Source of the DNA: Paracoccaceae bacterium
Lineage (GTDB): Bacteria > Pseudomonadota > Alphaproteobacteria > Rhodobacterales > Rhodobacteraceae
Assembly (NCBI GenBank): GCA_965116235.1
Contig: OZ220496.1
Location: 2,782,693 to 2,846,692 of the forward strand
Reading direction: 5' to 3'
Length of the DNA stretch: 64,000 nt
Shown here: piece after piece, positions 3,941 through 58,552 of the stretch
How positions within the stretch are numbered: the stretch's first letter is position 1
Layout: each line of letters starts with the position of its first letter
Notes under the pieces: model-generated
Told to the model about the DNA's origin: nothing
Databases searched by the model: none
Seen by the model: the letters and a program-made list of their open reading frames with translations, nothing else
Program-made: the position numbers and the translations under genes

Positions 3941-5131
3941 TCAATTTTTCAGCATCCTGACCGAATCGACGATGATTTCGGCAACCAGGCGGCAGTCGGC
4001 AACGGTAAAGGTCAGGGGTATGCGCATGTCCATCAGATTCTTGAGAATCTTCATGGTCTGAGGACATTCCTGATGATCCAGGTATTTCCAGCTGTCAAAT
4101 CGTGAGGTATATCCTTCGGGCTGTTCGGCCCCGAACCATTTCAATTCGACACCGCGGAATCGACACAGCCTCAGGAACTCCCTGATGTCTTGAGGGGTAT
4201 CAAACTCTACAAAAAACTGGATGGAAGAACCGACAAAACGTTCCCCTGCCCGTCTATCCGTTATCGAGATCCATGGCGAACGGCTCAGCTGCTCAGCGAT
4301 TGCCCGATAGCGCTTGTTCCACCGCTCACACTGCTTGTCCAGCTGGACCAGTTGGGGACGAAGAATAGCCGCCCTGAGATTGTCCATTCGGCCTGAACAG
4401 TTGGGAATCTGCATCTTGATATCGTCGAAACAACCTAGATCTGGACGGGCCAAATGCCGATCGAACAGCATGTAACTGCCGGCGAGCACAATGGCTTTCG
4501 CCATGATGTCATCACTGTTTGTAACCAGCAGCCCCCCTTCGCCAGAGTTCATATGCTTATAGGTCTGGGTCGAGAAGCAGCTGACAATCCCATGTCGCCC
4601 TGAGGGAACTCCCTGCCAAAAGGCCCCCATGGTATGGGCGCAGTCCTCAATCAGAATCAGGTGAAGCCTTGTACAAAGGGCAACCAGCTCGTTCATGTCG
4701 CAGATGTGTCCCCGCATGTGCGAAAGAACCAACACGCTGGCTCCCGACGTTCTGGCCTTTTGTTCCAAGTCGGCGAAGTCAATTGTCAGATCACCGCCGA
4801 TCTCGACCAGTACAGATCGTGCTCCCACGCTGTCTATCGCTCCTGGCACCGGGGCAAGAGTGAAGGCATTGGTCAGCACCTTGTCGTCCCTTTGAACGCC
4901 AACTGCCCTGAGTGCACAGGATATGGCATACCCGCCAGATGCCACCGCCAAGCAGTACCGAGTGCCCACATACTTGGCAAATTCCTGTTCAAGCCGTGAG
5001 GTCTCAGAAATTTCCCCTTCGATCACGTTGTATCGGTGCAGCCGCCCATGACGCAATACCGCAATGGCGGCATTGACTGCATGCTCGTCCAGAGATTCCT
5101 GCTGGGTAAAGCTTCGGTGAAACTTTCGCAT
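3941..5131 (-). CDS. DegT/DnrJ/EryC1/StrS family PLP-dependent aminotransferase
   Basis: Contains LAVASGGYAI, IEDCAHTMGA and the PLP-lysine context FSTQTYKHMNSGEGG. The longest ORF starts at a GTG (5158). An ATG at 5131 has a GAGAGGAAA Shine-Dalgarno sequence (SD). Confidence 0.85.
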   Translation of the reverse strand: MRKFHRSFTQQESLDEHAVNAAIAVLRHGRLHRYNVIEGEISETSRLEQEFAKYVGTRYCLAVASGGYAISCALRAVGVQRDDKVLTNAFTLAPVPGAIDSVGARSVLVEIGGDLTIDFADLEQKARTSGASVLVLSHMRGHICDMNELVALCTRLHLILIEDCAHTMGAFWQGVPSGRHGIVSCFSTQTYKHMNSGEGGLLVTNSDDIMAKAIVLAGSYMLFDRHLARPDLGCFDDIKMQIPNCSGRMDNLRAAILRPQLVQLDKQCERWNKRYRAIAEQLSRSPWISITDRRAGERFVGSSIQFFVEFDTPQDIREFLRLCRFRGVELKWFGAEQPEGYTSRFDSWKYLDHQECPQTMKILKNLMDMRIPLTFTVADCRLVAEIIVDSVRMLKN

Positions 5132-29808: not shown

Positions 29809-32800
29809 TCAGAAGCGGAAGGTCACGGACAGACCGCCCCCAAAGTCGGTGTTGTCGCTCCCCGCCGTCGCATAAAAGGCATCCCCCGTCAGTAGCGTCG
29901 TGTCGTGGCCGCCCAGAGACATCGCCCCGCCCACGCCCAGACGCACCCAGGTCGGCTTCACCTCCGTCGCCAGCCGGGTGCCGGCCACCATCACCGCATG
30001 CTTGGACGAGAACTCATGCTCCAGATCCAAAGACGCATACAGCCGACCGTCGGTATCCTCCGGACCCAACTCGGCCAAGACACCTACACGACCCTGAACG
30101 CTCTGCTCCTTGTCCGGAGCAACCCGGCCGGCTCCATCGATCCGGGTCGGTTCGTCAAAGGCGTCCATGTCCACCGATGACCAAGACAGACCCCCACGCG
30201 GAATCACGGTCATGCCTCCCATACTCATCGGCTGACCGACTTCCACTCCGAGCGCCAGACCGTTGCCACCTCCCTTGGAGGTGATCGCACCGACCGCACT
30301 GTTGGCCGACACCATCGTGATATCAAAGAACCGGGTGTAGCTCAGCTGGCCGTCCACATACAGCCCGCGGTCGTCCGTCCAGGTCAGGGACAGGCCCACA
30401 CCGGTGCCGCTCGCTTCCATGGTGCCACCCTTCTTGACGGTGGCCTCACTTTGCCGGTAGTGGGCACTCACGCCCAGCACCAGACGCTCATCGGTCGGCA
30501 CTTCCAGACCCGCCTCAAAGTCGGTCTGCTTGACATCCCATGCCAGAGACTGACGCCAAAAGTCCTGGGCCGTCGTCGATGTATCGGCCATCCGCTCACC
30601 GTCACGGACCGCCAGACGTACCCAGACACCCGTGCGGGAACTTGGAGTTACCACATGCTCGCCCTTGCTGCTCTCGACCATGACCTCCTCGTCGCCGGTG
30701 GTCCGGCGGGGCACCGCCATGCGCGTACTGTAGGGCGTCAGGTCCACCAGACCCAGAAGCACCGACGGCAACACCTCATACAGACGCGCCCGATGGCTGT
30801 ACAGACGCAAGACCGGAGCCGACGGATCATCCTCGAATTGGTAACCATCCGTAATCTTCTCGAGCTGGGCCTTGAACACCTGTTCGTACACACCCATCCG
30901 GTCGCCACGGCGGTAGACATGATCATTCACCTTCAGATCATTCTCGGTTCCGGATGCACTGCGGGTCTTGAACTCGAGTGTGGAACGGGTCCTCTCCTTG
31001 TTCTCTTCTTCTATATCCTGGGCCGCGGACACGCGGTTCAGGATCTTGCCTTCGACATGACCCACGACACCCGCCTCATCCTTCTCCAGAATCACCGCGA
31101 CAACTTCGGCCTGGTCATCGTCAGCCTTGGGATCCACCTCGATGGCCACGCCGGATTTCGCCTTGACATGCGCGCGAGGACCAATCACGATCGTGCCACC
31201 CCCCTTCTCGCTCGCGCCTAGCGCGACTATGCTGCTTCTCCGGATGCGCACGCCGGCACATATGTTCTGGCCCGTCTTCGTGTTGGTGCATGCCGAGTCA
31301 CCACCCATGACCGTACCGCGGATGGTAAGAGCAAACTTGTCGACGGCCGAGCCGCGCTTGTCGACCATGATGCCATAATGGTCCGCCGTGATCACGCTGC
31401 CTTCCTTGGTCTCGACCGTGGCCGTGGCACCAGCGTAAGCACGGGCACGGATGCCAACCTTCTTCGCCGTGATGCGGCTGCCCGCCTCCATCGTGATCGA
31501 TACGGCCTTGTAGCCTTGCGCATGAATGCCCGCAGGTGATGTGCCCGTAGTAGGTTCTGCACCCGCCGTGATCTTGCCTCTGTGGGTGATCGTGATGGTA
31601 CCGGTGCGGTCGGGGTCAAGGTAAACCGCAATCCCATATCCGCTTGCCACAATCTCGCTGTCCGCTCCTGTCTTAATCACGACGTCGCCCCCGGCTGTCG
31701 TTTCGCCAGGATCTAGGAGTCGTACATACATCCCAAAATTGTCTTCGGTGAGTATACTCCCCAAGTGCCTGATCATGATTTTGCCTTTGGCGTCTGCGGT
31801 TAGATCCATATTGATGCCGTACTCCTGCGCCTTTATGCTGCTGCCTGGCATCGTTGTGACCGTGACGTCTCGGATGCCTTTCGCTTCAATACCATGTCCA
31901 GCCGCATCGATCAGGCCTCCGTGGGTGATCCTGATGTTGCCGATGCGTTTATTTCCGCCAATCTCGGCCTTGATCCCATACGGGTAGACTCCATTGTCAC
32001 TGGCTGATTGGTTTCGGTTCGTCTTGATCTTGCTGCCCGCTCCCGTCTCAATCACGATGTCGCCCTTGATCCCGCTCCCGCTTGTGGGATCCTCCAGGGA
32101 TGCACTTATTCCATGCGTGGCATATATTGCGCCTTGGTGCGTGATCGTGATTGTGCCGACACCCGCGGGCTTTATAGCTGCGACAATGCCATACGCACTG
32201 ATGGGGTTGCCATCCGCGCCGAGCGTCACTCCGGGATCAACCGTAATCGTGATACCACCCTTGGCATGCTGCTCGACATCCATGCCATAGCCCTGCTCAT
32301 AATTCTCGCCGCTGTCATGCGCAAGAATGGAACCGCCCTTGAGATGGACCGTGATCGGTATCGTCGTGCCCGCGGCGGCTTCGTCAGTGCGAACGTGGAT
32401 GCCTTTTTTGGGACCGCGCGGCACCGGCAGCGGCGGCGTCGCCTTCGACACGTCAATTGTGGCGCTCGACTCAAGATGGATGCCCCCGGTCACCCCGTCC
32501 TTTTTATTGGCCTTGTCTTCGGCTTCCCCCGTGTGTTTAAGGTCAATGCCCAATAATCCCCCAGCACCCGAGGTAGTGATGATGCTCTTTTCGTCCAGTA
32601 CGAGCTTGAGCAAGCCGGTTCCGGCACGCTCCATGCCTATGCCCGTGCCCTGCGAATAGGTCGCGATACGGCCTGTGACCACAACATCACGGGCGCCACC
32701 AGTTGTGGCGGTAATGCTGAGGGCACCGCCGGTGAGGTGTTTTGCGGTTGGGCTTTCGCCAAGCACGGCCCCGTTCAAGTCCAGTGTCAGACCTCCGGTC

Positions 32801-33081
32801 AGTCCGCGGCATGAAATCACGTCCGTGTATGGCTCGTCACTGCTCAGGGCAAACTTGGGCAGCGTTCCATCTGTACCCGTGCATGTTTGGGCCGCAACCG
32901 AATGTGGTACCGCCAGGAGCATCCCCAGCCCGACAAACAGCGCTCCAATTGTCGAAGGCCCGAAGCCCGGTCCACGGAGGGACCCAACCGAGAGATCATC
33001 TACCCCCCCCCTGCTCGTGTTCATGGGCACGCACGGGCCGGCCCCGTCCGCCCAGATCGAAATCAATCCTGTCATGATCAT
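29809..33081 (-). CDS. autotransporter outer membrane protein (large repetitive beta-helix-type passenger plus C-terminal beta-barrel); reading frame intact
   Basis: Signal-like STIGALFVGLGMLLAVPHSVAAQ. Long Gly/Thr/Ile-rich passenger with recurring units such as ...GTITITH.G.I.A...GI.A... C-terminal about 280 aa barrel region ending GGGLSVTFRF (terminal aromatic). Start taken as the ATG at 33081 (MIMTGL) with GAGAAGGGAA upstream. The 33216 TTG start in the track reads through the promoter region. Confidence 0.85.
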   Translation of the reverse strand: MIMTGLISIWADGAGPCVPMNTSRGGVDDLSVGSLRGPGFGPSTIGALFVGLGMLLAVPHSVAAQTCTGTDGTLPKFALSSDEPYTDVISCRGLTGGLTLDLNGAVLGESPTAKHLTGGALSITATTGGARDVVVTGRIATYSQGTGIGMERAGTGLLKLVLDEKSIITTSGAGGLLGIDLKHTGEAEDKANKKDGVTGGIHLESSATIDVSKATPPLPVPRGPKKGIHVRTDEAAAGTTIPITVHLKGGSILAHDSGENYEQGYGMDVEQHAKGGITITVDPGVTLGADGNPISAYGIVAAIKPAGVGTITITHQGAIYATHGISASLEDPTSGSGIKGDIVIETGAGSKIKTNRNQSASDNGVYPYGIKAEIGGNKRIGNIRITHGGLIDAAGHGIEAKGIRDVTVTTMPGSSIKAQEYGINMDLTADAKGKIMIRHLGSILTEDNFGMYVRLLDPGETTAGGDVVIKTGADSEIVASGYGIAVYLDPDRTGTITITHRGKITAGAEPTTGTSPAGIHAQGYKAVSITMEAGSRITAKKVGIRARAYAGATATVETKEGSVITADHYGIMVDKRGSAVDKFALTIRGTVMGGDSACTNTKTGQNICAGVRIRRSSIVALGASEKGGGTIVIGPRAHVKAKSGVAIEVDPKADDDQAEVVAVILEKDEAGVVGHVEGKILNRVSAAQDIEEENKERTRSTLEFKTRSASGTENDLKVNDHVYRRGDRMGVYEQVFKAQLEKITDGYQFEDDPSAPVLRLYSHRARLYEVLPSVLLGLVDLTPYSTRMAVPRRTTGDEEVMVESSKGEHVVTPSSRTGVWVRLAVRDGERMADTSTTAQDFWRQSLAWDVKQTDFEAGLEVPTDERLVLGVSAHYRQSEATVKKGGTMEASGTGVGLSLTWTDDRGLYVDGQLSYTRFFDITMVSANSAVGAITSKGGGNGLALGVEVGQPMSMGGMTVIPRGGLSWSSVDMDAFDEPTRIDGAGRVAPDKEQSVQGRVGVLAELGPEDTDGRLYASLDLEHEFSSKHAVMVAGTRLATEVKPTWVRLGVGGAMSLGGHDTTLLTGDAFYATAGSDNTDFGGGLSVTFRF
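33003..33011 (-). repeat. G9 homopolymer (C9 on the + strand) inside codons 23-26 of the left autotransporter
   Basis: AGC AGG GGG GGG GTA reads ...NTSRGGVDDL and is in frame. Confidence 0.9.
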
Positions 33082-33121
33082 TGTTCCCTTCTCGTTATCC
33101 AAAAAGTAAAGTCTGCTAAAA

Positions 33122-33150
33122 AATAAATGCCCCCCCCCCAAGATTTGCAA
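33122..33150 (-). promoter_or_regulatory. putative sigma70-type promoter of the left autotransporter, with a G10 tract in the spacer
   Basis: On the gene strand: TTGCAA-ATCTT-G10-CA-TTTATT, a 17 nt spacer, about 40 nt upstream of the ATG. The tract is 33130-33139 (C10 on the + strand). The -35/-10 assignment is by eye only. Confidence 0.45.
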
Positions 33151-33186
33151 CTCTTTTGTGACGCTCCGGTTCATTTTTCTCCAAAC

Positions 33187-33204
33187 TGTCGCATGCATGC
33201 GACA
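33187..33204. promoter_or_regulatory. 18 bp perfect palindrome TGTCGCATGCATGCGACA upstream of the left autotransporter promoter
   Basis: Self-complementary over all 18 nt. It lies 36 nt upstream of the putative -35 and about 30 nt after the stop of the Cys-rich ORF. It could be an operator or a terminator stem. Confidence 0.3.
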
Positions 33205-33234
33205 CACCGGCTTCAACGATGTGTTGTGGCTTAC

Positions 33235-33786
33235 TCAGGGGAAAGCCTCGGACGGTGCACGATTGATCACGACTATATCAAGGGTTGAGCCTTTTCTGGT
33301 GTTCCCGTATCCCGACATGTGTGGCCCTGTTGGGCCGTTTTGGTGGATGGGGTCATGCGTCGGGCTGGGATGACGGCAAAAAGTGACAGCCCTGTACCGC
33401 CGTTGCCGGATATTCCTGAGGTCACCGAAGTCCGGAGGCGGACACACGCTCCCGCAGGAGGCGGGGTTGTCGCCATGGCAACAGCTGCAATGCTCCCAGC
33501 CGCTGGCGGGGCTGTATTTGGTCAACGTGGCACGACACGGCAACGGATCGGCAAAACGCCAAACCGGTATGCGGCCGAACCGGGCAATGATGGCTTCCAA
33601 GCCCAAGGCAACGGCACCTTGCCGACCAGCTTTCAGGTTGGGGATGACACTCGGTGGCGGATTGCGATTGACAAGAGGCGATTTGCGGAATTGCCGAGCA
33701 CTTTTGTCCCAAACGGATTTCCGCTGCTTGATGGTAGGTCGGGAGGCATGATCCGGCATGGTCGCGATACGCATGAACACACGCAT
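33235..33786 (-). CDS. hypothetical Cys-rich protein conserved in both repeat arms (intact copy)
   Basis: 183 aa ORF with GWEHCSCCHGDNPASCGSVCPPP. Across the first ~57 codons the two arms differ at 8 synonymous third positions against 3 replacements, which supports this frame. The C-terminal half is much more divergent. I recognise no family. Confidence 0.4.
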   Translation of the reverse strand: MRVFMRIATMPDHASRPTIKQRKSVWDKSARQFRKSPLVNRNPPPSVIPNLKAGRQGAVALGLEAIIARFGRIPVWRFADPLPCRATLTKYSPASGWEHCSCCHGDNPASCGSVCPPPDFGDLRNIRQRRYRAVTFCRHPSPTHDPIHQNGPTGPHMSGYGNTRKGSTLDIVVINRAPSEAFP

Positions 33787-34022: not shown

Positions 34023-35246
34023 CTACGCTTTTTCGATTATGTAGTCCATGAGCGACGGGATACCCGGTTCCCAGCAGTCGGCTGCCATGCCGTCCCAGAT
34101 ATATCCCTTGTGCCGCATGAAGCGCCATCGTGCCATCGTCTGTTCCGGCCCTAGACCATCCAGTACTCGCTTCAGCTGGTTCGTATCCACCCGACCGTCG
34201 TGACTGCGAAAGGTCAGCGCTACATCCAGAGCCACTTTCAACCCATCAGGCAACTCCATGAATTCCCAGCGACGGCGAGCATAATAACGCTGCCGCGTGT
34301 CATACGCGGCAGCGTTAGCCGTACGACACTCGGTTGGACCGAAATGCTTGCTCTCGGCCTGTATCACCGCATCAAAGGCAACGGACCCGTAAAGCTGCAA
34401 GAAATAGGGATAGCCATCCGTCATGCCAACAAGATCTGCAATTGCCGTTGCATCACACGATATGCCCACAGCGGCTAGCGGGCGGGCTACAACATCGGTC
34501 GCGGCAATGGTGTCAAGACAGCCTAGGGGGAGATCAATGCCACGATCCCAGAAACTGGCGCCAGCCTGATCAAGGCTGTCCACCAAGCCCGGCGTACCGG
34601 CCAGTACCAGAGCGATGGGCATGCGTTCGCCGGCTTCCAGTACCGCATTAAGCAAAACACGCAGGGCATCCGGTTCTACCATGTGGGCCTCATCAAGGGT
34701 AATCAGCAGCGGACCAGCTAAGCGCAGGAGAGACTCCGATTCGGTGCGATCCGAACGCTCTGGCAAGGTCAGGGTTACCGACCCGAGACCCATCGTGATG
34801 TGAGCCTCCTTTGGCTGCATTGACTCAATATCACGCATCAGCTCCGTATGCTGGATGCGAGAGCGTTTTAGCCAGCTCCAGACCCGATCCCAAGCGGTAT
34901 CAAGCGGCTTGGTCGCATCCGATGTGCTGCCGGTTATCTCAATCGTTGGTCGAAAGAGAGTGCGATGCATACCCTCCTTCGTTGTGACCGCATTGGCTGA
35001 CAAGGGCAACAGGATATCCGGCTCCGGTCGCGAGCGTATAGTCTGGCGCAGAGCATTGAGGAGCACCGTCTTGCCTGTTCCACGTGGCCCGTAAATATAC
35101 AGGAAATCGGGTCCAGTTCGGTCTGCAATGGTCGTCAAAGGCCGCAACTGATGGACCGTTCGTGCCAGCACCGAATCAATCGCCGGTCGCTGGCCCATAA
35201 AGGGGGGTGGCTTGGCAATGCCCGGAACAAACGGGTTGTCGGTCAT
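34023..35246 (-). CDS. AAA/ORC-like (Arch_ATPase-type) ATP-binding protein
   Basis: NPFVPGIAKPPPFMGQRPAI lead-in, Walker A YIYGPRGTGKTVLL and Walker B-like LLITLDEAH. The start is uncertain: ATG at 35246 or 35297, while the longest ORF reaches 35423. Confidence 0.7.
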   Translation of the reverse strand: MTDNPFVPGIAKPPPFMGQRPAIDSVLARTVHQLRPLTTIADRTGPDFLYIYGPRGTGKTVLLNALRQTIRSRPEPDILLPLSANAVTTKEGMHRTLFRPTIEITGSTSDATKPLDTAWDRVWSWLKRSRIQHTELMRDIESMQPKEAHITMGLGSVTLTLPERSDRTESESLLRLAGPLLITLDEAHMVEPDALRVLLNAVLEAGERMPIALVLAGTPGLVDSLDQAGASFWDRGIDLPLGCLDTIAATDVVARPLAAVGISCDATAIADLVGMTDGYPYFLQLYGSVAFDAVIQAESKHFGPTECRTANAAAYDTRQRYYARRRWEFMELPDGLKVALDVALTFRSHDGRVDTNQLKRVLDGLGPEQTMARWRFMRHKGYIWDGMAADCWEPGIPSLMDYIIEKA

Positions 35247-35781
35247 CGCATTTGCGTCGGTCGGTCCTGCCACTGATTCCCTCTTCCCGCTCGTCATCTG
35301 TCGTACCAATATAGACAAACACCCATTCAAACGCAAGATAACAGCACGCCAGCCATGCGAGCCATCCAAGCTGGAATCAGCCGGTCCTGTTCGGAAGATT
35401 ACAGCTATCTGGTTTGGCCTCATGCGCCATGAGTCAGGTAAAATGACTGGCGTCCCAGTGATGTGCGCCAGCGTTCAGCATAACGATATCCAAGAACATG
35501 CTGACATGATACAACCAGCCATCAGCCGATCGGTTCGCAACAGGGCAGAAACGACTGGCCGGAGATCAGAAGCATAAACCGTTCATTGGGCCAAGCGTCG
35601 GAAGCCGATGAATCATCCGAAGCTTTGCCCCCTTCGCCCAACTTCGGAAGTTTGGCACACCAGACCAGCATGGCAACTGCCAAGCGGAAAATCACTAGAA
35701 TTAAGCAAGAGGCTGTCAGTGATGTGAGTGTTAGTAGCGGTTGAAAATGCATTCCAGAAAGGATGGACAGTTTGCAATTCC

Positions 35782-37083
35782 CTAATGTCTCCCGCTGACC
35801 GGCGCGTAGAGATTGTCATAACTTGAAGCAATCAAGCGCGGACAGTGCTTGTGGATTCGCGAAAGCAGAAGCGTTCTCATCGAGTGATAAAACGAATTGT
35901 GATGTCGATTGACGAATGCTTGAAGATTGCTGCCTCTTACAACTTGGCCAATTCTCCTCTGCCTTGATTTCTTGAACTTGTCAAAGGCCTCCTTTGGGGT
36001 GGTTGACCCCGCTATGGCTGAAGCCAGCACCCATCCGTCCTCGATGGCCATGTTCCCTCCTTGGGCCAGAAACGGCAATAATGGATGAAGAGCATCACCG
36101 ATCAGGCAAGTGTTCTCGACAGACCAAACCGGATGCACTCGGCTAGGACGGAGATCGTAATATCGTTGACCAGTGCTGGCCTCAGCGATATCAATGGTCG
36201 ATTGAAACCGATCCAGCAACGCCGAAAGCTCGTCAAGGGCCTTGCTTGCAGGTTTTGACGCCGGAACAACGGCGACAAGATTCAGAAATCTTCCCTTGTT
36301 GATCGGATACGCCACTGTGTGACAGGTTCTCGTATAGGTGAGAGTAACCTGTGCAAGGCTAAGGCTGCCATGATCCGGTATCTCATTCATGGGAACAACC
36401 ATGCGCAAGGCAGAGTATGAAGACCTTGAATTTCTGTGTCCTGGATTGACAAGCCGGTTCACCCGCGAAGCCACCCCGTCCGCTCCCACGAGAATCTGGG
36501 GAAAATGACAGGTGCCATTCGCCCGTCTAACACCGTACCGATCACCTTCTAGCGGAAATTCAACAACATTTTCGTTAAAATGGACGACAACCCCCAGATT
36601 GCGAGCATGCTCGATGAGCACATCAAGTAACTCCCCCCGCTCCAAGGTGAGGTATCCCAAATTCCATTCGTCGCGAAATTTGCCGACATCCAGACGAAAC
36701 AAGTCATGTACGACCGCCGAATCTCTGACCACAATGTGATTGATAACGTTCGCAATTGCAGCAAGCTGGTCGTTGAGACCAAGTCGGGCGAGCAGATACG
36801 AGGCATTCGGGGTAATCTGAATACCCATGCCGCCAGTCTGTGGAGAACTCCTTTTTTCAATCACTACGGATTTAATTCCTAACCTGGCCAGGGAAATGGC
36901 CAGTGTCAAACCGGCAAGCCCACAGCCTACAATGACGATGTCATGCAATGTTCTGCTCACAACATTAGATCCATAAATTCCAGTACTGCAGACCGCATGA
37001 AGATAACGACACAGGTCACAACACCCAGATAATCGACACCACCCAGACTCAACCGAAGATAAATCAACATTCAAGCCATTCAT
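35782..37083 (-). CDS. FAD-dependent monooxygenase (salicylate/aromatic hydroxylase-like, UbiH/PheA family)
   Basis: IVIVGCGLAGLTLA dinucleotide fold, DGVASRVN, and LIGDALHPLLPFLAQGGNMAIEDG. The ~45 aa preceding the GxGxxG is unusual, so an internal GTG start is possible. Confidence 0.85.
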   Translation of the reverse strand: MNGLNVDLSSVESGWCRLSGCCDLCRYLHAVCSTGIYGSNVVSRTLHDIVIVGCGLAGLTLAISLARLGIKSVVIEKRSSPQTGGMGIQITPNASYLLARLGLNDQLAAIANVINHIVVRDSAVVHDLFRLDVGKFRDEWNLGYLTLERGELLDVLIEHARNLGVVVHFNENVVEFPLEGDRYGVRRANGTCHFPQILVGADGVASRVNRLVNPGHRNSRSSYSALRMVVPMNEIPDHGSLSLAQVTLTYTRTCHTVAYPINKGRFLNLVAVVPASKPASKALDELSALLDRFQSTIDIAEASTGQRYYDLRPSRVHPVWSVENTCLIGDALHPLLPFLAQGGNMAIEDGWVLASAIAGSTTPKEAFDKFKKSRQRRIGQVVRGSNLQAFVNRHHNSFYHSMRTLLLSRIHKHCPRLIASSYDNLYAPVSGRH

Positions 37084-48458: not shown

Positions 48459-48476
48459 TGTCGCAGGCATGCGACA
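48459..48476. promoter_or_regulatory. imperfect copy of the arm palindrome (TGTCGCAGGCATGCGACA)
   Basis: Same position relative to the promoter as in the left arm, with one mismatch from perfect dyad symmetry. Confidence 0.25.
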
Positions 48477-48512: not shown

Positions 48513-48540
48513 TTGCAAATCTTGGGGGGGGGCATTTAAT
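48513..48540 (+). promoter_or_regulatory. putative sigma70-type promoter of the right autotransporter, with a G9 tract in the spacer
   Basis: TTGCAA-ATCTT-G9-CA-TTTAAT, a 16 nt spacer. The tract is 48524-48532. AGGAG lies 5 nt before the ATG at 48586. Confidence 0.45.
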
Positions 48541-48585: not shown

Positions 48586-51521
48586 ATGATGATGAAATTG
48601 ACTTCACTTTGGGGCCGACGCGGCCATCCGGCCCCTGCCTGTGAACGCGTCGGGGGGGGGTAGATGACCTTGCGACCCGCCCCCGCGTCGGGTCGGCATT
48701 CAGGCTTGCGACGATTGGAGCGCTGCTTGTCGGGCTCGGGATGCTTGTCGCCTCGCCGCATCCCTCAGCGGCCCAAGGCACCTGCTCCGTAAGTGACGGG
48801 ACGAATTCGGAAACGGTTCCGGATGGCAATCCGCCGGAGGTTACCAAGACCGGCCAGTACGACGAGCAACTTGATTGCAAGGGACTCGCCAACGGCCTGA
48901 AGCTGACGCTGGATGACTTCAAGGTCGGCACAAGCGACGACCCAGCTGATGAAAGAGGTCTTATCGTTAACGCGGATGGTGCCGAAGGCGACGATGTCAC
49001 GGTCATGGGCAAAGTAGTCATCCATTCCGATAAGTCCGGCATAAACCTGTCACGGGACGGGACGGGATTGCTCAAGTTGCAGTTGGATCCGGAAAGCGAA
49101 ATCAATATCGCGTTGTCCGATGATGATGATGCGCGCATGAGAGGGAACAGTGGCATTTTTCTCGAGCACTCGGGGGAAGCCGATACGGCTCTTGATGGCG
49201 GCATCCACCTCGTGTCGAGTGCCAAGATTGACGTGTCGAAGTCGCTGTACGTCGGCAAGGCAGGCATCGCTGTTAGGACCGGGGAAACAGAATCGGACAC
49301 AGCCGAGGGCACGACGATACCGATCACGATCCATCTCAAGGGCGGTTTCATTCGTGCGGAGGACACTGACAGTAAGAAACAGTCGGGAAATGGCATCAGA
49401 GTCATTCAGTACGCCAAGGGCAAAGTCGACATCACGGTGGACCCGGGGGTGATGATCGGCATGGAAGGCAAATCCATCGGCCGGGCTGGCATTGATGCTA
49501 CGATTTTTCCCAAGGGCGACGGCAACCTCGTGATCAAGCACTCAGGGCATATATACGCCGACGAGTATGGAATATATGCATCCTTAGCAGATCCTGGCGA
49601 CACGCCAGCCGGGGGCGACATCACGATTGAGACGGGAGCGGACAGCGTGATTGACACAAGCGGGTATGGGATTGCGGCTTACCTTGAAGAAGACCGCACC
49701 GGGACCATCAAGATCAACCACTATGGCAAGATCAAGGCGGGTGCCCAAGCGGGTATTCATGCGCAAGGTGACAAGGCCATATCGATCACGATGGAGGCGG
49801 GCAGCCGCATCACGGCGACGGAGATTGGCCTTCGTGCCCTCGCTTACCTTGGCGCCACGGCCACGGTCGAGACCAAGGAAGGCAGCGTGATCACGGCGGA
49901 CCATCATGGCGTTCAGGTTGACCAAAGAAGCCCGAAGCAAGGAGACCCGGCCATAACAAAGTTTACTGTCACCATCCGCGGCACGGTCATGGGTGGTGCC
50001 ACCGAATACGCCGGTGTGCACATCTTTAAGAGGGATCTGCCGCCGGATGGAACTCAGGGAGATTCTGGGTATTGGGCAGGAGATCCGACGCCGAGCGGAG
50101 TGGGCGGCACGATCGTGATCGGTCCCCGGGCGCATGTGAGCAGTTTCCATGCCCAGCCCGATACTGAATCCGCGAAGAAGGTGGCCATCAAGGTGGATGC
50201 CGGTGCGAGCACCGCCACCGCTCCGGTGACCATCATCCTGGAAAAGGACGAGGCGGGTGTTGTGGGTCATGTTGAAGGCCAGATCCTGAACCTCGCGGCG
50301 ACAGGAAACAGCAAGGGAAAAACGGACGAACCACCCCGCTCGACACTCGAGTTCAAGGTGTCGGGAAGTAAGACGGCTCTGGAACCGGGTGCCCCCGATG
50401 CGATCATTTATCGTCGTGGCCAACGGATGGGCGTATATGAACAGGTGTTCAAGGCTAAGCTCGAGGAGCTTGACGATGATAAGGGTTACCAGTTCAAGGA
50501 TGTTGCGTCGGCTCCGGTCTTGCGTCTGTACAGCCATCGGGCGCGTCTGTATGAGGTGGTGCCGTCGGTGCTTCTGGGTCTGGTGGAGCTGACGCCCTAC
50601 AGCACGCGCATGGCCATGCCCCGCCGGAGCACCGGCAACGAGGAGGTCATGGTCGAGAGCAGCAAGGGGGAGCATGTGGCGGTGCCGGGTGCCCGCACGG
50701 GTGTCTGGGTGCGTCTGGCGGTTCGCGATGGGGAACGGATGGCCGATACATCGACGACCGCAACGGACTTCTGGCGTCAGTCTCTGGCGTGGGATGTGAA
50801 GCAGACCGGCTTTGAGGCGGGTCTGGAGGTGCCGACCGATGAGCGTCTGGTGCTGGGCGTGAGTGCCCACTACCGGCAGAGCGAGGCCACCGTCAGGAAT
50901 GGTGGCACCATGGAAGCGAGCGGCACCGGTGTGGGCGTGTCCCTGACCTGGACGGACGACAGCGGGCTGTATGTGGACGGCCAGTTGAGCTACACCCGGT
51001 TCTTTGATATCACGATGGTGTCGGCCAACGGTGCGGTTGGTGCGATCACCTCCACGGGTGGCGGCACCGGTCTGGCGTTCGGTGTGGAAGTCGGCCAGCC
51101 GATGAGCATGGGGGGCATGACCGTGATTCCGCGTGGGGGTCTGTCCTGGTCATCGGTGGACATGGATGCCTTTGACGAACCGGCCAGGATCGATGGAGCC
51201 GGCCGGGTTGCTCCGGACAAGGAGCAGAGCGTTCAGGGTCGTGTGGGCGTGCTGGCTGAGCTGGGTTCCGGGGAGGCGGACGGTCGGCTGTATGCATCGC
51301 TGGATCTGGAGCATGAGTTCTCGTCCAAGCGTGCGGTGATGGTAGCCGGCACCCGGCTGACGACCGAGGTGAAGCCGACCTGGGTGCGTCTGGGCGTCGG
51401 CGGGGCGATGTCTCTGGGCGGCCACGACACGACGCTACTGACGGGGGATGCCTTTTATGCGACGGCGGGGAGCGACAACACCGACTTTGGGGGTGGCGTG
51501 TCCCTGACCTTCCGCTTCTGA
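48586..51521 (+). CDS. autotransporter outer membrane protein, paralog of 29809-33081; frame broken at a G9 tract (phase-OFF as sequenced)
   Basis: ATG ATG ATG AAA... (MMMKLTSLWGRRGHPAPACERVGGG) hits TAG at 48661. With one more G the frame runs GGGVDDLATRPRVGSAFRLATIGALLVGLGMLVASPHPSAAQG into the 926 aa track ORF (48741-51521). That continuation aligns with the left copy (RGGVDDLSVGSLRGPGFGPSTIGALFVGLGMLLAV). The protein ends GGGVSLTFRF. Confidence 0.8.
48652..48660 (+). repeat. G9 homopolymer in the 5' coding region of the right autotransporter
   Basis: Read directly: GTC GGG GGG GGG TAG. The main ORF is in the frame reached with G10 (or G7/G13). Confidence 0.9.
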
Positions 51522-55765: not shown

Positions 55766-56788
55766 ATGGAGTTTGGATTCATGATGGATGAGAGCCTTTT
55801 CGGAGTCCGCGACAAGCGTGGACATTGGCGACCCTTCAGGCGAGTCAAGTACCCGCCGTTGTTCACTTGGCCCGTCAGGATTCGTCCCCTTTTGGCGTGG
55901 ATATTTCGCTGGAATGGCTACATTTACCCGTACAACCTGCTGTATGCTGTCGTAGGCATCCTGGTTTGGACCTACCTGACCCCCGACCTGTCAACGATGC
56001 AGTCATTTGGCTTCGACTGGGTTCTTTTCATCCTGCTCAGAAATGCCGGCATCATGACCCTTTGGTACGGCCTGTTTCATCTGCGTCTATACATTGTCAA
56101 GGGCCAGGGAACCGCGTTCAAATATAACCCCAAATGGCCGGAAACCGACAGTTCCGGTTTTCTGTTTCGAAATCAAACCATCGACAATCTGATCTGGTGC
56201 TACTTCAGTGCCTTGCCTCTGTGGACTGCATATGAAGCGGCAACCCTTTGGATGATGGCAAACGGATTTATTCCTGTTTTGGCCTTCACCGAGAATCCGG
56301 TGCTGTTTGTTGCACTATTTTTTGCCATTCCACTGTTCAGAGAAGTTCATTTTTACTTTATCCACCGACTGATCCACTGGCCTCCACTCTATCGTGCCTG
56401 CCACAAGGTTCATCATGCCAACTCCAATCCAGGTCCTTGGTCGGGATTGTCCATGCATCCCGGAGAACATCTTATTTATTTTTCAAGTGTCCTGTTGCAT
56501 TGGATTGTTCCCTCGAACCCGGTACATGTCGTATTCCATATGGTTCACCTGACCATGTCACCACCTGTGACTCATTCGGGATTTGAAAAGGTCGTTCTGG
56601 ATGATGGCAAGGCTGTCGACACCAATGCATTGGCTCACTACCTTCACCACAAGTATTTTGAAGTGAACTATTCTGATGGAGCCGTGCCACTTGACAAGTG
56701 GTTCGGATCGTTTCATGACGGGTCGCCGGAGGGCGACAAGCTGGTCCAGCAAAGGTTAAGACACCTCAAGGCTCGATCCGTAAAATAG
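55766..56788 (+). CDS. fatty acid hydroxylase / sterol desaturase family membrane protein
   Basis: Histidine boxes HFYFIHRLIH, HKVHH and HYLHHKY, with several TM segments. Confidence 0.85.
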   Translation: MEFGFMMDESLFGVRDKRGHWRPFRRVKYPPLFTWPVRIRPLLAWIFRWNGYIYPYNLLYAVVGILVWTYLTPDLSTMQSFGFDWVLFILLRNAGIMTLWYGLFHLRLYIVKGQGTAFKYNPKWPETDSSGFLFRNQTIDNLIWCYFSALPLWTAYEAATLWMMANGFIPVLAFTENPVLFVALFFAIPLFREVHFYFIHRLIHWPPLYRACHKVHHANSNPGPWSGLSMHPGEHLIYFSSVLLHWIVPSNPVHVVFHMVHLTMSPPVTHSGFEKVVLDDGKAVDTNALAHYLHHKYFEVNYSDGAVPLDKWFGSFHDGSPEGDKLVQQRLRHLKARSVK

Positions 56789-56852: not shown

Positions 56853-56862
56853 GGGGGGGGGG
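56853..56862. repeat. G10 homopolymer in a convergent intergenic region
   Basis: Read directly: GAAGGCT-G10-ACGAC, between the stops of 55766-56788 (+) and 57007-57678 (-). Confidence 0.9.
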
Positions 56863-57006: not shown

Positions 57007-57678
57007 TCAGTTTTCATGGGAAACCGGCTCGAAATCAACCATGTCACGTGCTGTTCGGGCAATGAAAAGCCCGACGATTCGAGTTTGCGGGAATCGCTTT
57101 GTTAAGATTGACTTTGCGGCTCGAAAATGTGCACCCGTTGTCAGGACGTCATCGACGATGACAATTCGTTCTTGAACGGGCATAATGCACTGCTTGTCAT
57201 CAACACGATATAGATTTTCGATCTGCTCAGGACGCATCCGCTCTTCTTTAACATGAACCGATTCTGTACTCGCGATCTGAACAATGAGTTCGCGGATATC
57301 AAGAGGTGGAGTGGGACGAATGGAATTTAGCATCCGTACCATTCGGTCATCGTAAAGGGGATCATCTTTTGCCTTTGATGGTGGAATCGGCACAAAGGTC
57401 AGGCGGTCCAGAACTTTCAGCAGGGCAGATTTAAACGCGGTTGCAGTCTCTCGAATAGCCTTCTCTTTGTATTTCCACTCCGGCAATCCACGACGGTCCG
57501 TCGGTTTCTTGAAGTTTATTATCAGTTGATTGGTCGTACTGTGCCTGTACCCCTCACCGGCACTATATTCACCGAAAAAGCAACACGCATCGTCATCATT
57601 CAGATACCAATGGTCTTGACGTGTCAGTTGGTCGATCTCAGTCAGACGATGTGGAAAGGTATTGGCAGATTTCATCAT
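57007..57678 (-). CDS. phosphoribosyltransferase-domain protein (ComF-like PRTase core without the N-terminal zinc finger)
   Basis: PRPP loop RIVIVDDVLTTGAHFRAAKSIL near the C-terminus. The ATG ATG at 57678/57675 is preceded by AAGGA. The longest track ORF (to 57783) would overlap the upstream gene by 146 nt. Confidence 0.75.
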   Translation of the reverse strand: MMKSANTFPHRLTEIDQLTRQDHWYLNDDDACCFFGEYSAGEGYRHSTTNQLIINFKKPTDRRGLPEWKYKEKAIRETATAFKSALLKVLDRLTFVPIPPSKAKDDPLYDDRMVRMLNSIRPTPPLDIRELIVQIASTESVHVKEERMRPEQIENLYRVDDKQCIMPVQERIVIVDDVLTTGAHFRAAKSILTKRFPQTRIVGLFIARTARDMVDFEPVSHEN

Positions 57679-58552
57679 AATCCTTGACACGTAAGGCACC
57701 TTTATTGGCAAGCCTGTCGGGCCACCTGAGGCGCTGATCTTGGAAGCAACTGTCAAGAATGAACAGCTTGCGGCCCTGTTCAAGTGCCGCGCGGGCTTGA
57801 ATGAGTGTACCCGATGTCTCCCCGGCCTCCACGATTATGGTGGCTTCGGTGAGAGCCGACATGGTTTTGTTCCGTTCTGGAAAGAACAGGCGATTCTGCC
57901 GATAATCCTGAGATTCGTAGCGTATGACTGGCACTTGGCTGATGACCAAAAAGTGTTCGGCGATCTGACTTTGCAACTCGGCGTTCTCTTTCGGATAGAC
58001 ATGTGACAATGGGGTACCTACGACTGCGATCGTCCGCCCGTTCTCCTCCATAGCGGTTTCATGAGCCATGCGGTCAACTCCAGCCGCCAAACCGGAGACA
58101 ACTGTGAAGCCGTCCTGCACCAAATCGCTTACCAATCGTCTGGTATAGGCAAGTCCTTGTTGCGACGGCTTACGGGTGCCGACCACGGCAACCGAGCGCG
58201 AAGCCGTCAGGTCCCACCAACCTTGATAGTAGAAGCATTCGATAGGATGTGCCGCATCACGGAGTTTATCGGGATACTCGGCTGAGCCGTGAACCCGCAC
58301 CCCAAACCGCCCAACTCCGGCTTCTTCAAACTTCTGCTTGACGCGGTCGGCATACTCATAGGCACGGTCGACGGAAACGAAATCTGACGGAAGGCTGTCG
58401 GGGTAGCGGGCAAACCGTTGAGACAAGGACCTGAACGTTGTCTTCGGTTCTGTCCACAAGACTTCGTATGCCCCCATCTCCAAAAATGGAGAAACCGCCA
58501 GACTTTCAAAATCCGGTCGGCCAAGTGGGAGTTCTGCCGTCATCCCTTGCAC
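57638..58552 (-). CDS. DprA/Smf-like (SLOG Rossmann fold) protein lacking the C-terminal winged-helix extension
   Basis: VAVVGTRKPS...VVSGLAAGVDRMAHETAL..GRTIAVVGTPLSHVYPKEN...FPERNKTMSALTEATIIVEAGETSGTLIQARAALEQGRKLFIL matches the DprA core. 304 aa. Start is the GTG at 58552 or the ATG at 58543. Confidence 0.8.
   Translation of the reverse strand: MQGMTAELPLGRPDFESLAVSPFLEMGAYEVLWTEPKTTFRSLSQRFARYPDSLPSDFVSVDRAYEYADRVKQKFEEAGVGRFGVRVHGSAEYPDKLRDAAHPIECFYYQGWWDLTASRSVAVVGTRKPSQQGLAYTRRLVSDLVQDGFTVVSGLAAGVDRMAHETAMEENGRTIAVVGTPLSHVYPKENAELQSQIAEHFLVISQVPVIRYESQDYRQNRLFFPERNKTMSALTEATIIVEAGETSGTLIQARAALEQGRKLFILDSCFQDQRLRWPDRLANKGALRVKDYDEICQYLSTSSD

Follow-up and report, generated by a model that had tools for sequence, protein, structure and literature searches.

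A run of ten G residues in the promoter region of the left autotransporter gene, within the 64,000-nt stretch analysed here (the window), very probably belongs to a hypermutable promoter cassette. In the favoured reading, held with some reserve, the tract tunes transcription through the length of the −35/−10 spacer and acts as a ‘volume’ switch paired with a translational switch. The G10 tract would be a slippage-prone homopolymer in the core promoter, between a TTGCAA −35 hexamer and an A/T-rich −10 region. Replication slippage would add or remove one G and thereby change the −35/−10 spacing, and the changed spacing would raise or lower transcription initiation (‘volume control’). Translation would be turned on or off by frameshifting at a further G tract, in the part of the gene that encodes the signal peptide. 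The promoter is one of ∼30 copies of a standard cassette serving genes for outer-membrane proteins (autotransporters and porins). The use of the hexamers by RNA polymerase, the dependence of activity on tract length and the optimal length are points that we infer from these data.

Layout of the probable promoter of the left autotransporter gene

On the minus strand, the site reads TTGCAA (33150–33145), ATCTT (33144–33140), the homopolymer GGGGGGGGGG (G10, 33139–33130), CA (33129–33128) and TTTATT (33127–33122). The spacer between TTGCAA and TTTATT counts 17 nt, 10 of which are the G tract. The homopolymer (33130–33139, minus strand; C10 on the plus strand) is the proposed hypermutable part of this spacer; paralogous promoters carry G7, G9, G10 or an interrupted G5AG3 at the same place. 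The hexamer TTGCAA (33145–33150) is proposed as the −35 element on the basis of its recurrence and its fixed distance to an inverted repeat, and TTTATT (33122–33127) is a −10 candidate with a 17-nt spacer at G10 and without A at −11. The distance from TTTATT to the ATG of the left autotransporter (33081) is 40 nt; that from the tract end to the ATG is 48 nt, as compared with 44–59 nt across all cassettes. An RBS-like AAGGGA (33090–33085) precedes this start, the two together covering 33079–33090.

Two further elements lie upstream on the same strand. The perfect 16-nt inverted repeat GTCGCATGCATGCGAC (33188–33203), with its motif at 36 genome sites, is likely an operator common to all cassettes. 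An A-rich block, AGAAAAATGA ... CACAAAAGAG (33151–33180), abuts the 5′ side of TTGCAA, is kept in autotransporter and porin cassettes, and may be likened to an UP element.

The gene under this promoter (29809–33081, minus strand) encodes a protein of 1090 aa with ∼40 paralogues in the genome. A PF03797 beta-domain spans residues 839–1059 (E = 6e-30), as in classical (type Va) autotransporters, and the passenger has no Pfam match. The coding tract, a G9 in the N-terminal (signal-peptide) region (33011–33003, minus strand), is in frame with the 1090-aa ORF ending at 29809 and is followed by TAGATGA; downstream of it comes a hydrophobic N-terminal segment, ...GALFVGLGMLLAVPHSVAAQ.

An Rfam search gave no match at E ≤ 1 in the region, and the possibility of a structured RNA element was rejected. 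A co-directional ORF (33235–33786) upstream of the promoter is a possible source of read-through transcription. A terminator-like hairpin located upstream (33401–33385) is weak and falls within a candidate ORF. Just upstream of the left arm are two neighbouring AAA_22/AAA_16 ATPase genes (34023–35423 and 35782–37083, both on the minus strand), members of a family with ∼15 paralogues in the genome and few close relatives elsewhere, which may be linked to a mobile element.

A cassette repeated across the genome

The genome searched is a single 3.25 Mb contig with 52.9% G+C. At 30 loci, TTGCAA (with at most one mismatch) is followed after 5–9 nt by G7–10 and, 110–123 nt further downstream, by a second tract of G8–10. 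The hexamer is exact in 27 of these cassettes and has one mismatch in the other three, and both tracts are G on the sense strand in all 30. The general order is inverted repeat, 37–38 nt, TTGCAA, 5–9 nt, G7–10, A/T-rich box, 44–59 nt, ATG and G8–10 in the signal-peptide region. The genes served are autotransporters and a family of porins of 435–494 aa (PF13609). Three upstream elements are common to all families, namely the inverted repeat, an AGAAAA(A)TGA box and an A-rich stretch abutting TTGCAA. The inverted repeat, GT[CT]GCA-N4-TGC[GA]AC, accounts for the 36 genome sites; a TTG hexamer lies 35–38 nt downstream in 32 of them, almost always at 37–38 nt. Symmetric double substitutions (GTTGCA...TGCAAC) retain the palindrome, and the repeat at 33188–33203 is likely to be an operator.

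The window contains an inverted second copy of the promoter region. In this right arm (48513–48540, plus strand), TTGCAA, ATCTT, G9 (48524–48532), CA and TTTAAT follow each other in the same architecture, with a 16-nt spacer, and the inverted repeat is found at 48460–48475 (plus strand). The two arms are ∼92% identical across the 650 nt upstream of the tract, and the similarity falls just past the A/T box. The right-arm coding tract, also G9 (48652–48660), leaves its gene out of frame. Much of the preliminary description is borne out at this level: the letters and coordinates of a G10 within a 17-nt spacer between −35-like and −10-like hexamers were verified on the minus strand, the same promoter architecture exists in the second copy, there with G9, and the pairing of a promoter tract with a coding tract extends to a genome-wide cassette at ∼30 loci.

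The translational layer has a regular form. The second tract lies after ∼25 codons of the ORF; TAGATGA or TAGACG usually comes next, with an immediate stop in both wrong frames. Among 29 scorable cassettes, three are in frame in the assembly, including that of the left autotransporter. The 26 others have intact frames of 435–1068 aa that need +1 in 13 cases and −1 in 13, a distribution as would be expected of a phase-variable family. An early homopolymer, a frame shift of ±1 and an otherwise intact ORF are found together, the features that would define a translational slipped-strand switch of the pilC or Campylobacter capC type.

The tract itself is far beyond chance. Runs of G or C in the genome number 380, 14, 25, 132, 31, 11 and 1 for lengths of 6, 7, 8, 9, 10, 11 and 12, with a second peak at 9. 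Runs of at least 8 nt amount to 200; 108 of them are outside gene calls, which are crude and cover 84% of the genome, and another 39 fall no more than 150 nt into a gene, G being on its sense strand. The hexamers are less distinctive: each matches the consensus at 4 of 6 positions (8 of 12 for the pair), and by our own arithmetic a match has a chance of ∼0.04 per hexamer, or a few percent per tract when several placements are allowed. Taken alone, the hexamer match is not beyond chance. The site rises above chance because the arrangement of TTGCAA and a G tract recurs at 30 loci. A consensus promoter scan of the window listed the site of neither arm, owing to the score of 8/12 and to a second hexamer without A at its position 2.

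What follows the tracts was also recorded. Among the 200 runs of at least 8 nt, the next letters are TA in 102 and TAG in 62, whatever the context, and after G5–6 runs, TA ranks below the eight most frequent dinucleotides. The G9-T(A) signature also occurs in unrelated genes of four same-genus genomes, C-strand genes included. Selection for a stop codon or a −10 element accounts for only part of it. Examples of G runs in the window are those at 33003–33011, 48652–48660 and 56853–56862; the last is an intergenic G10 between ORFs 55766–56788 (plus strand) and 57007–57783 (minus strand), without an upstream TTGCAA.

Spacer geometry, tract length and alternative readings

Evidence for a −35 function comes from relatives that lack the tract or have an interrupted one. 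Tract-less relatives carry TTGAAA, TTGCAA or TTGCTA at the hexamer site, at the same distance from the inverted repeat and with a 17-nt spacer. Seven of 11 tract-less sites linked to the inverted repeat read TTGAAA-N17-TAGTT[CT], and a tract-less autotransporter subfamily has TTGC[AT]A-N17-TAC[AG]TT or TTGCAA-N18-TATATT. Three paralogues with interrupted tracts (G5AG3, G5AG3 and TGGGAGGGG) keep 16 nt. The genome as a whole uses sigma-70 geometry and favours TAnnnT at 17 nt: TTGACA-N17-TAnnnT occurs 20 times upstream of genes, versus ∼3 for the background of other spacings or the antisense strand, and after TTGAC[AG] a genome-wide enrichment is seen for T at +18 and A at +19. TTGCAA probably functions as a −35 element. 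The earlier proposal of a tract in the spacer of an autotransporter promoter stands in part, since the tract is placed where a sigma-70-type spacer should be and the TTG hexamer is backed by tract-less relatives; it is weakened by the poor hexamers, the ambiguous −10 register and the failure of the scan to list the site. The promoter reading becomes likely in the context of the 30-locus cassette, the tract-less relatives, the length polymorphism and the stability of an interrupted tract.

The −10 element may lie in either of two registers. TTTATT corresponds to the box position of the other families, yet lacks the A-11 favoured by the genome’s own promoters. The overlapping TATTTT (33125–33120, minus strand) has both A-11 and T-7 and is an alternative candidate, with a spacer of 19 nt at G10 and of 17 nt at G8, which would be the optimum. 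In the tract-bearing families, a G9 tract places the A/T box 16 nt from TTGCAA, both where 7 nt precede the tract and, as in the family that includes the left autotransporter (family A), where 5 nt precede it and CA is added; at G9, TTTATT is 16 nt away, just like the boxes starting with TA in the remaining cassette families. Spacer lengths among the 11 family-A promoters are 14, 16 (eight promoters), 17 (the left autotransporter) and 18 nt, with flanks otherwise conserved. With a register of either 17 or 19 nt, G10 could be a high or a low state. For the same reason, the earlier claim that 17 nt is optimal, and that the in-frame copy has the best spacer, comes down to a single locus, and 8 of the 11 family members have 16 nt. 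The proposed pairing of the in-frame state with a canonical spacer likewise comes from this one locus, and the other two in-frame cassettes have 16 nt. One of three loci with 17 nt is in frame, versus 2 of the 26 others; by our own arithmetic this is not significant, and the association was rejected.

Tract length varies in the family. A homologue search beyond this genome recovered the family only in the ENA assembly ERZ24894574, which comprises contigs of a close relative and, from a more distant one, a circular genome of 3.01 Mb. The family-A locus at genome position 1,019,417 and its orthologue in the close relative share 99% identity across 420 nt, and the single indel in this comparison is the promoter tract, G9 versus G7. 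The interrupted promoter tract G5AG3 is identical in both assemblies; at the same pair of orthologues the coding tract differs (G10 versus G8), as does a tract further upstream (G9 versus G11). A third orthologous pair is unchanged. Within the genome, paralogues carry promoter tracts of G7, G9 and G10. The earlier idea of a promoter tract of changing length is supported by the family-A orthologues (G7 versus G9); the variation is thereby shown for the promoter family and not for the left autotransporter locus itself. When the autotransporter, the AAA ATPases and xthA were looked up as exact proteins in other assemblies, no orthologue of this locus emerged, and homologue searches with the AAA protein and xthA gave no close orthologue beyond this genome. 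Scans of genome and metagenome contigs for the exact family-A promoter pattern gave nothing, nor did a search for related loci with the conserved C-terminal half.

In the closest paralogue (83% identity; genome 2595596–2595616), a G11 replaces the GGTGTGT that adjoins the inverted repeat (window 33204–33210), and the corresponding tract is G9 in the second assembly. It looks like a third variable tract arising next to the operator.

Whether these lengths can be trusted is a matter in itself, and there is a modest chance that the G10 length, and with it the 17-nt spacer, is an artefact of the assembly consensus or a population average, in which case the difference between 17 nt on the left and 16 nt on the right would be uninformative. 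Long-read data are prone to errors in long homopolymers, the genome consists of one metagenome-style contig, and the related assembly has hifiasm-like contig names. Against an artefact, corrections of +1 and −1 are needed equally often (13 each), unlike what a one-directional calling bias would give; runs of 6 and 7 are not inflated, and an interrupted tract is identical in two assemblies. Even a hypermutable tract might lack any regulatory effect, being carried in a duplicated, gene-converted 5′ cassette or made by a genus-wide process that generates G9-TA, with expression under the coding tract alone. The modal length of 9 for tracts of every location, the TA that follows about half of them (102/200) regardless of context and in unrelated genes of relatives, and the distant homologues with a coding tract only would all fit such a neutral tract. 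This is nonetheless unlikely: total spacer length is conserved across families that differ in the length preceding the tract, interrupted tracts hold the 16-nt length, and neutrality would not easily account for a position between the conserved TTG hexamer and the sole A/T-rich block ahead of the RBS.

The length of the tract might set the distance or helical phase between a regulator, bound at GTCGCATGCATGCGAC or at the near-palindrome AAGAGTTGCAAATCTT, and the −10 element or start site, rather than sigma-70 spacing. The strict placement of the inverted repeat 37–38 nt upstream of TTGCAA in 32 promoters would suit a regulator, as would the palindromic nature of TTGCAA, part of a 14/16 palindrome in family A, and the poor −10 candidates. 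Such phasing is rendered quite unlikely by the tract-less relatives with an ordinary TTGAAA-N17-TAGTTY. Moreover, a regulator at the inverted repeat is fixed relative to the TTG hexamer, because the repeat is upstream at a constant distance and the tract downstream. A sigma-54 (RpoN) promoter, in which TTGCAA would be the −12 element and the tract would lie at or after the start site, is highly improbable and was rejected. The consensus is TGGCAC-N5-TTGCW, and TTGCA fits its −12 box; yet GTCACAAAAGAG (family A) and ACAAAGCATG (porin family) precede TTGCAA, and the GG of the −24 element is found 10–11 nt upstream of the GC in no cassette family.

Relatives, known systems and significance

The cassette and the autotransporter family are absent from thirteen same-genus genomes. 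Several same-genus genomes have an excess of G9 runs (79, 38, 31 and 30, versus 132 here). One same-genus genome possesses a repeated gene family of its own, in which C9 comes a few codons past the start (MKRLLNTPPP...) at five loci; because of it, poly-G/C contingency loci look like a genus trait expressed on different gene families. In the distant relative, autotransporter homologues with 37–41% identity (ERZ24894574:ctg6925c) have coding tracts of ∼G24 (1355–1380) and ∼G15 (5049–5063), followed by TAG, and no promoter tract. Since these distant homologues have the coding tract alone, the promoter layer looks like a later addition in this lineage. The genome encodes GcrA, which is characteristic of Alphaproteobacteria, and the nearest named xthA homologues, at ≤75% identity, belong to Paracoccaceae and roseobacter-group bacteria. 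A full-text literature search, covering part of the journals, brought up no description of a comparable system in Alphaproteobacteria.

Promoter homopolymer switches are textbook biology in a few host-restricted pathogens (Neisseria, Bordetella, Treponema and Helicobacter). At fim2 and fim3 of Bordetella pertussis, a poly-C tract separates the BvgA sites from the −10 element in promoters that depend on BvgA, and the change in spacing leads to phase variation. Meningococcal opc has its poly-C at the −35 element. At Bordetella fim and meningococcal opc, the homopolymer sets the distance from a regulator to the −10 element or start. The present cassette resembles fim2/fim3 in having a homopolymer in the promoter region of genes for surface structures; it differs in the recognizable TTG −35 hexamer before the tract and in a candidate operator located upstream of this hexamer at a fixed distance.

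Closer parallels exist. In porA of Neisseria meningitidis, the length of a poly-G tract between the −35 and −10 elements sets the volume of transcription, with an optimum of 17 nt (PMC7864442). Here too, a G homopolymer of ∼9–11 nt occupies the spacer of a promoter for an outer-membrane protein gene, and some cassettes drive porins. Unlike porA of a host-restricted Neisseria, the present system is known from sequence alone, in a roseobacter-group alphaproteobacterium, and its cassette is repeated at ∼30 loci with a common upstream inverted repeat. Treponema pallidum tp0126 likewise has poly-G in the −35/−10 spacer, which is optimal at 17 nt, and the tprE/G/J/F/I/L promoters, which serve a paralogous family of outer-membrane proteins, have poly-G tracts of 7–11, mostly 9, with a CRP-like regulator working together with the tract at tprE/G/J (PMC7864442). 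The paralogous outer-membrane family is a shared trait, and regulator plus tract in tpr parallels operator plus tract here. In tpr, however, the start site is 4 nt after the tract, hence the tract is not a classical spacer there; the Treponema system has no paired coding tract, and phylum and lifestyle differ. Two layers are known from Helicobacter pylori, where a promoter poly-T tract and 5′ coding CT repeats exert slipped-strand control on a single adhesin gene, sabA (PMC2715451). As in sabA, promoter region and coding region each have a repeat; the repeats are of different types in sabA and poly-G in both layers here, and a ∼30-gene standard cassette stands against a single gene. The proposed mechanism is of a kind already known (porA, tp0126), and what is notable is the scale (∼30 genes) and the host lineage.

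On a wider view, put forward tentatively as a possibility somewhat short of probable, the left autotransporter promoter may be a single unit in a modular poly-G switch of two layers that spans the genome. Some 30 autotransporter and porin genes would owe to a portable cassette both graded promoter control and binary frame control, each stochastic and independent for every gene. The whole would constitute a large simple-repeat ‘phasome’ outside the classical host-restricted pathogens, in which the promoter layer is a recent addition to an older switch based on the coding tract only. Its purpose would presumably be surface variation against phages, grazers or a host. The logic known from pathogens would then be met in an uncultured marine alphaproteobacterium, in a form standardized as promoter tract, coding tract and common operator. 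Should the promoter tract prove functional, the tract-less and interrupted paralogues would provide a natural series for the addition of a transcriptional layer to a translational switch, and metagenome analysts would gain a reason to read heterogeneity in homopolymer length as biology and not as error. Also on that condition, large repeat-driven sets of phase-variable genes would not be confined to pathogens.
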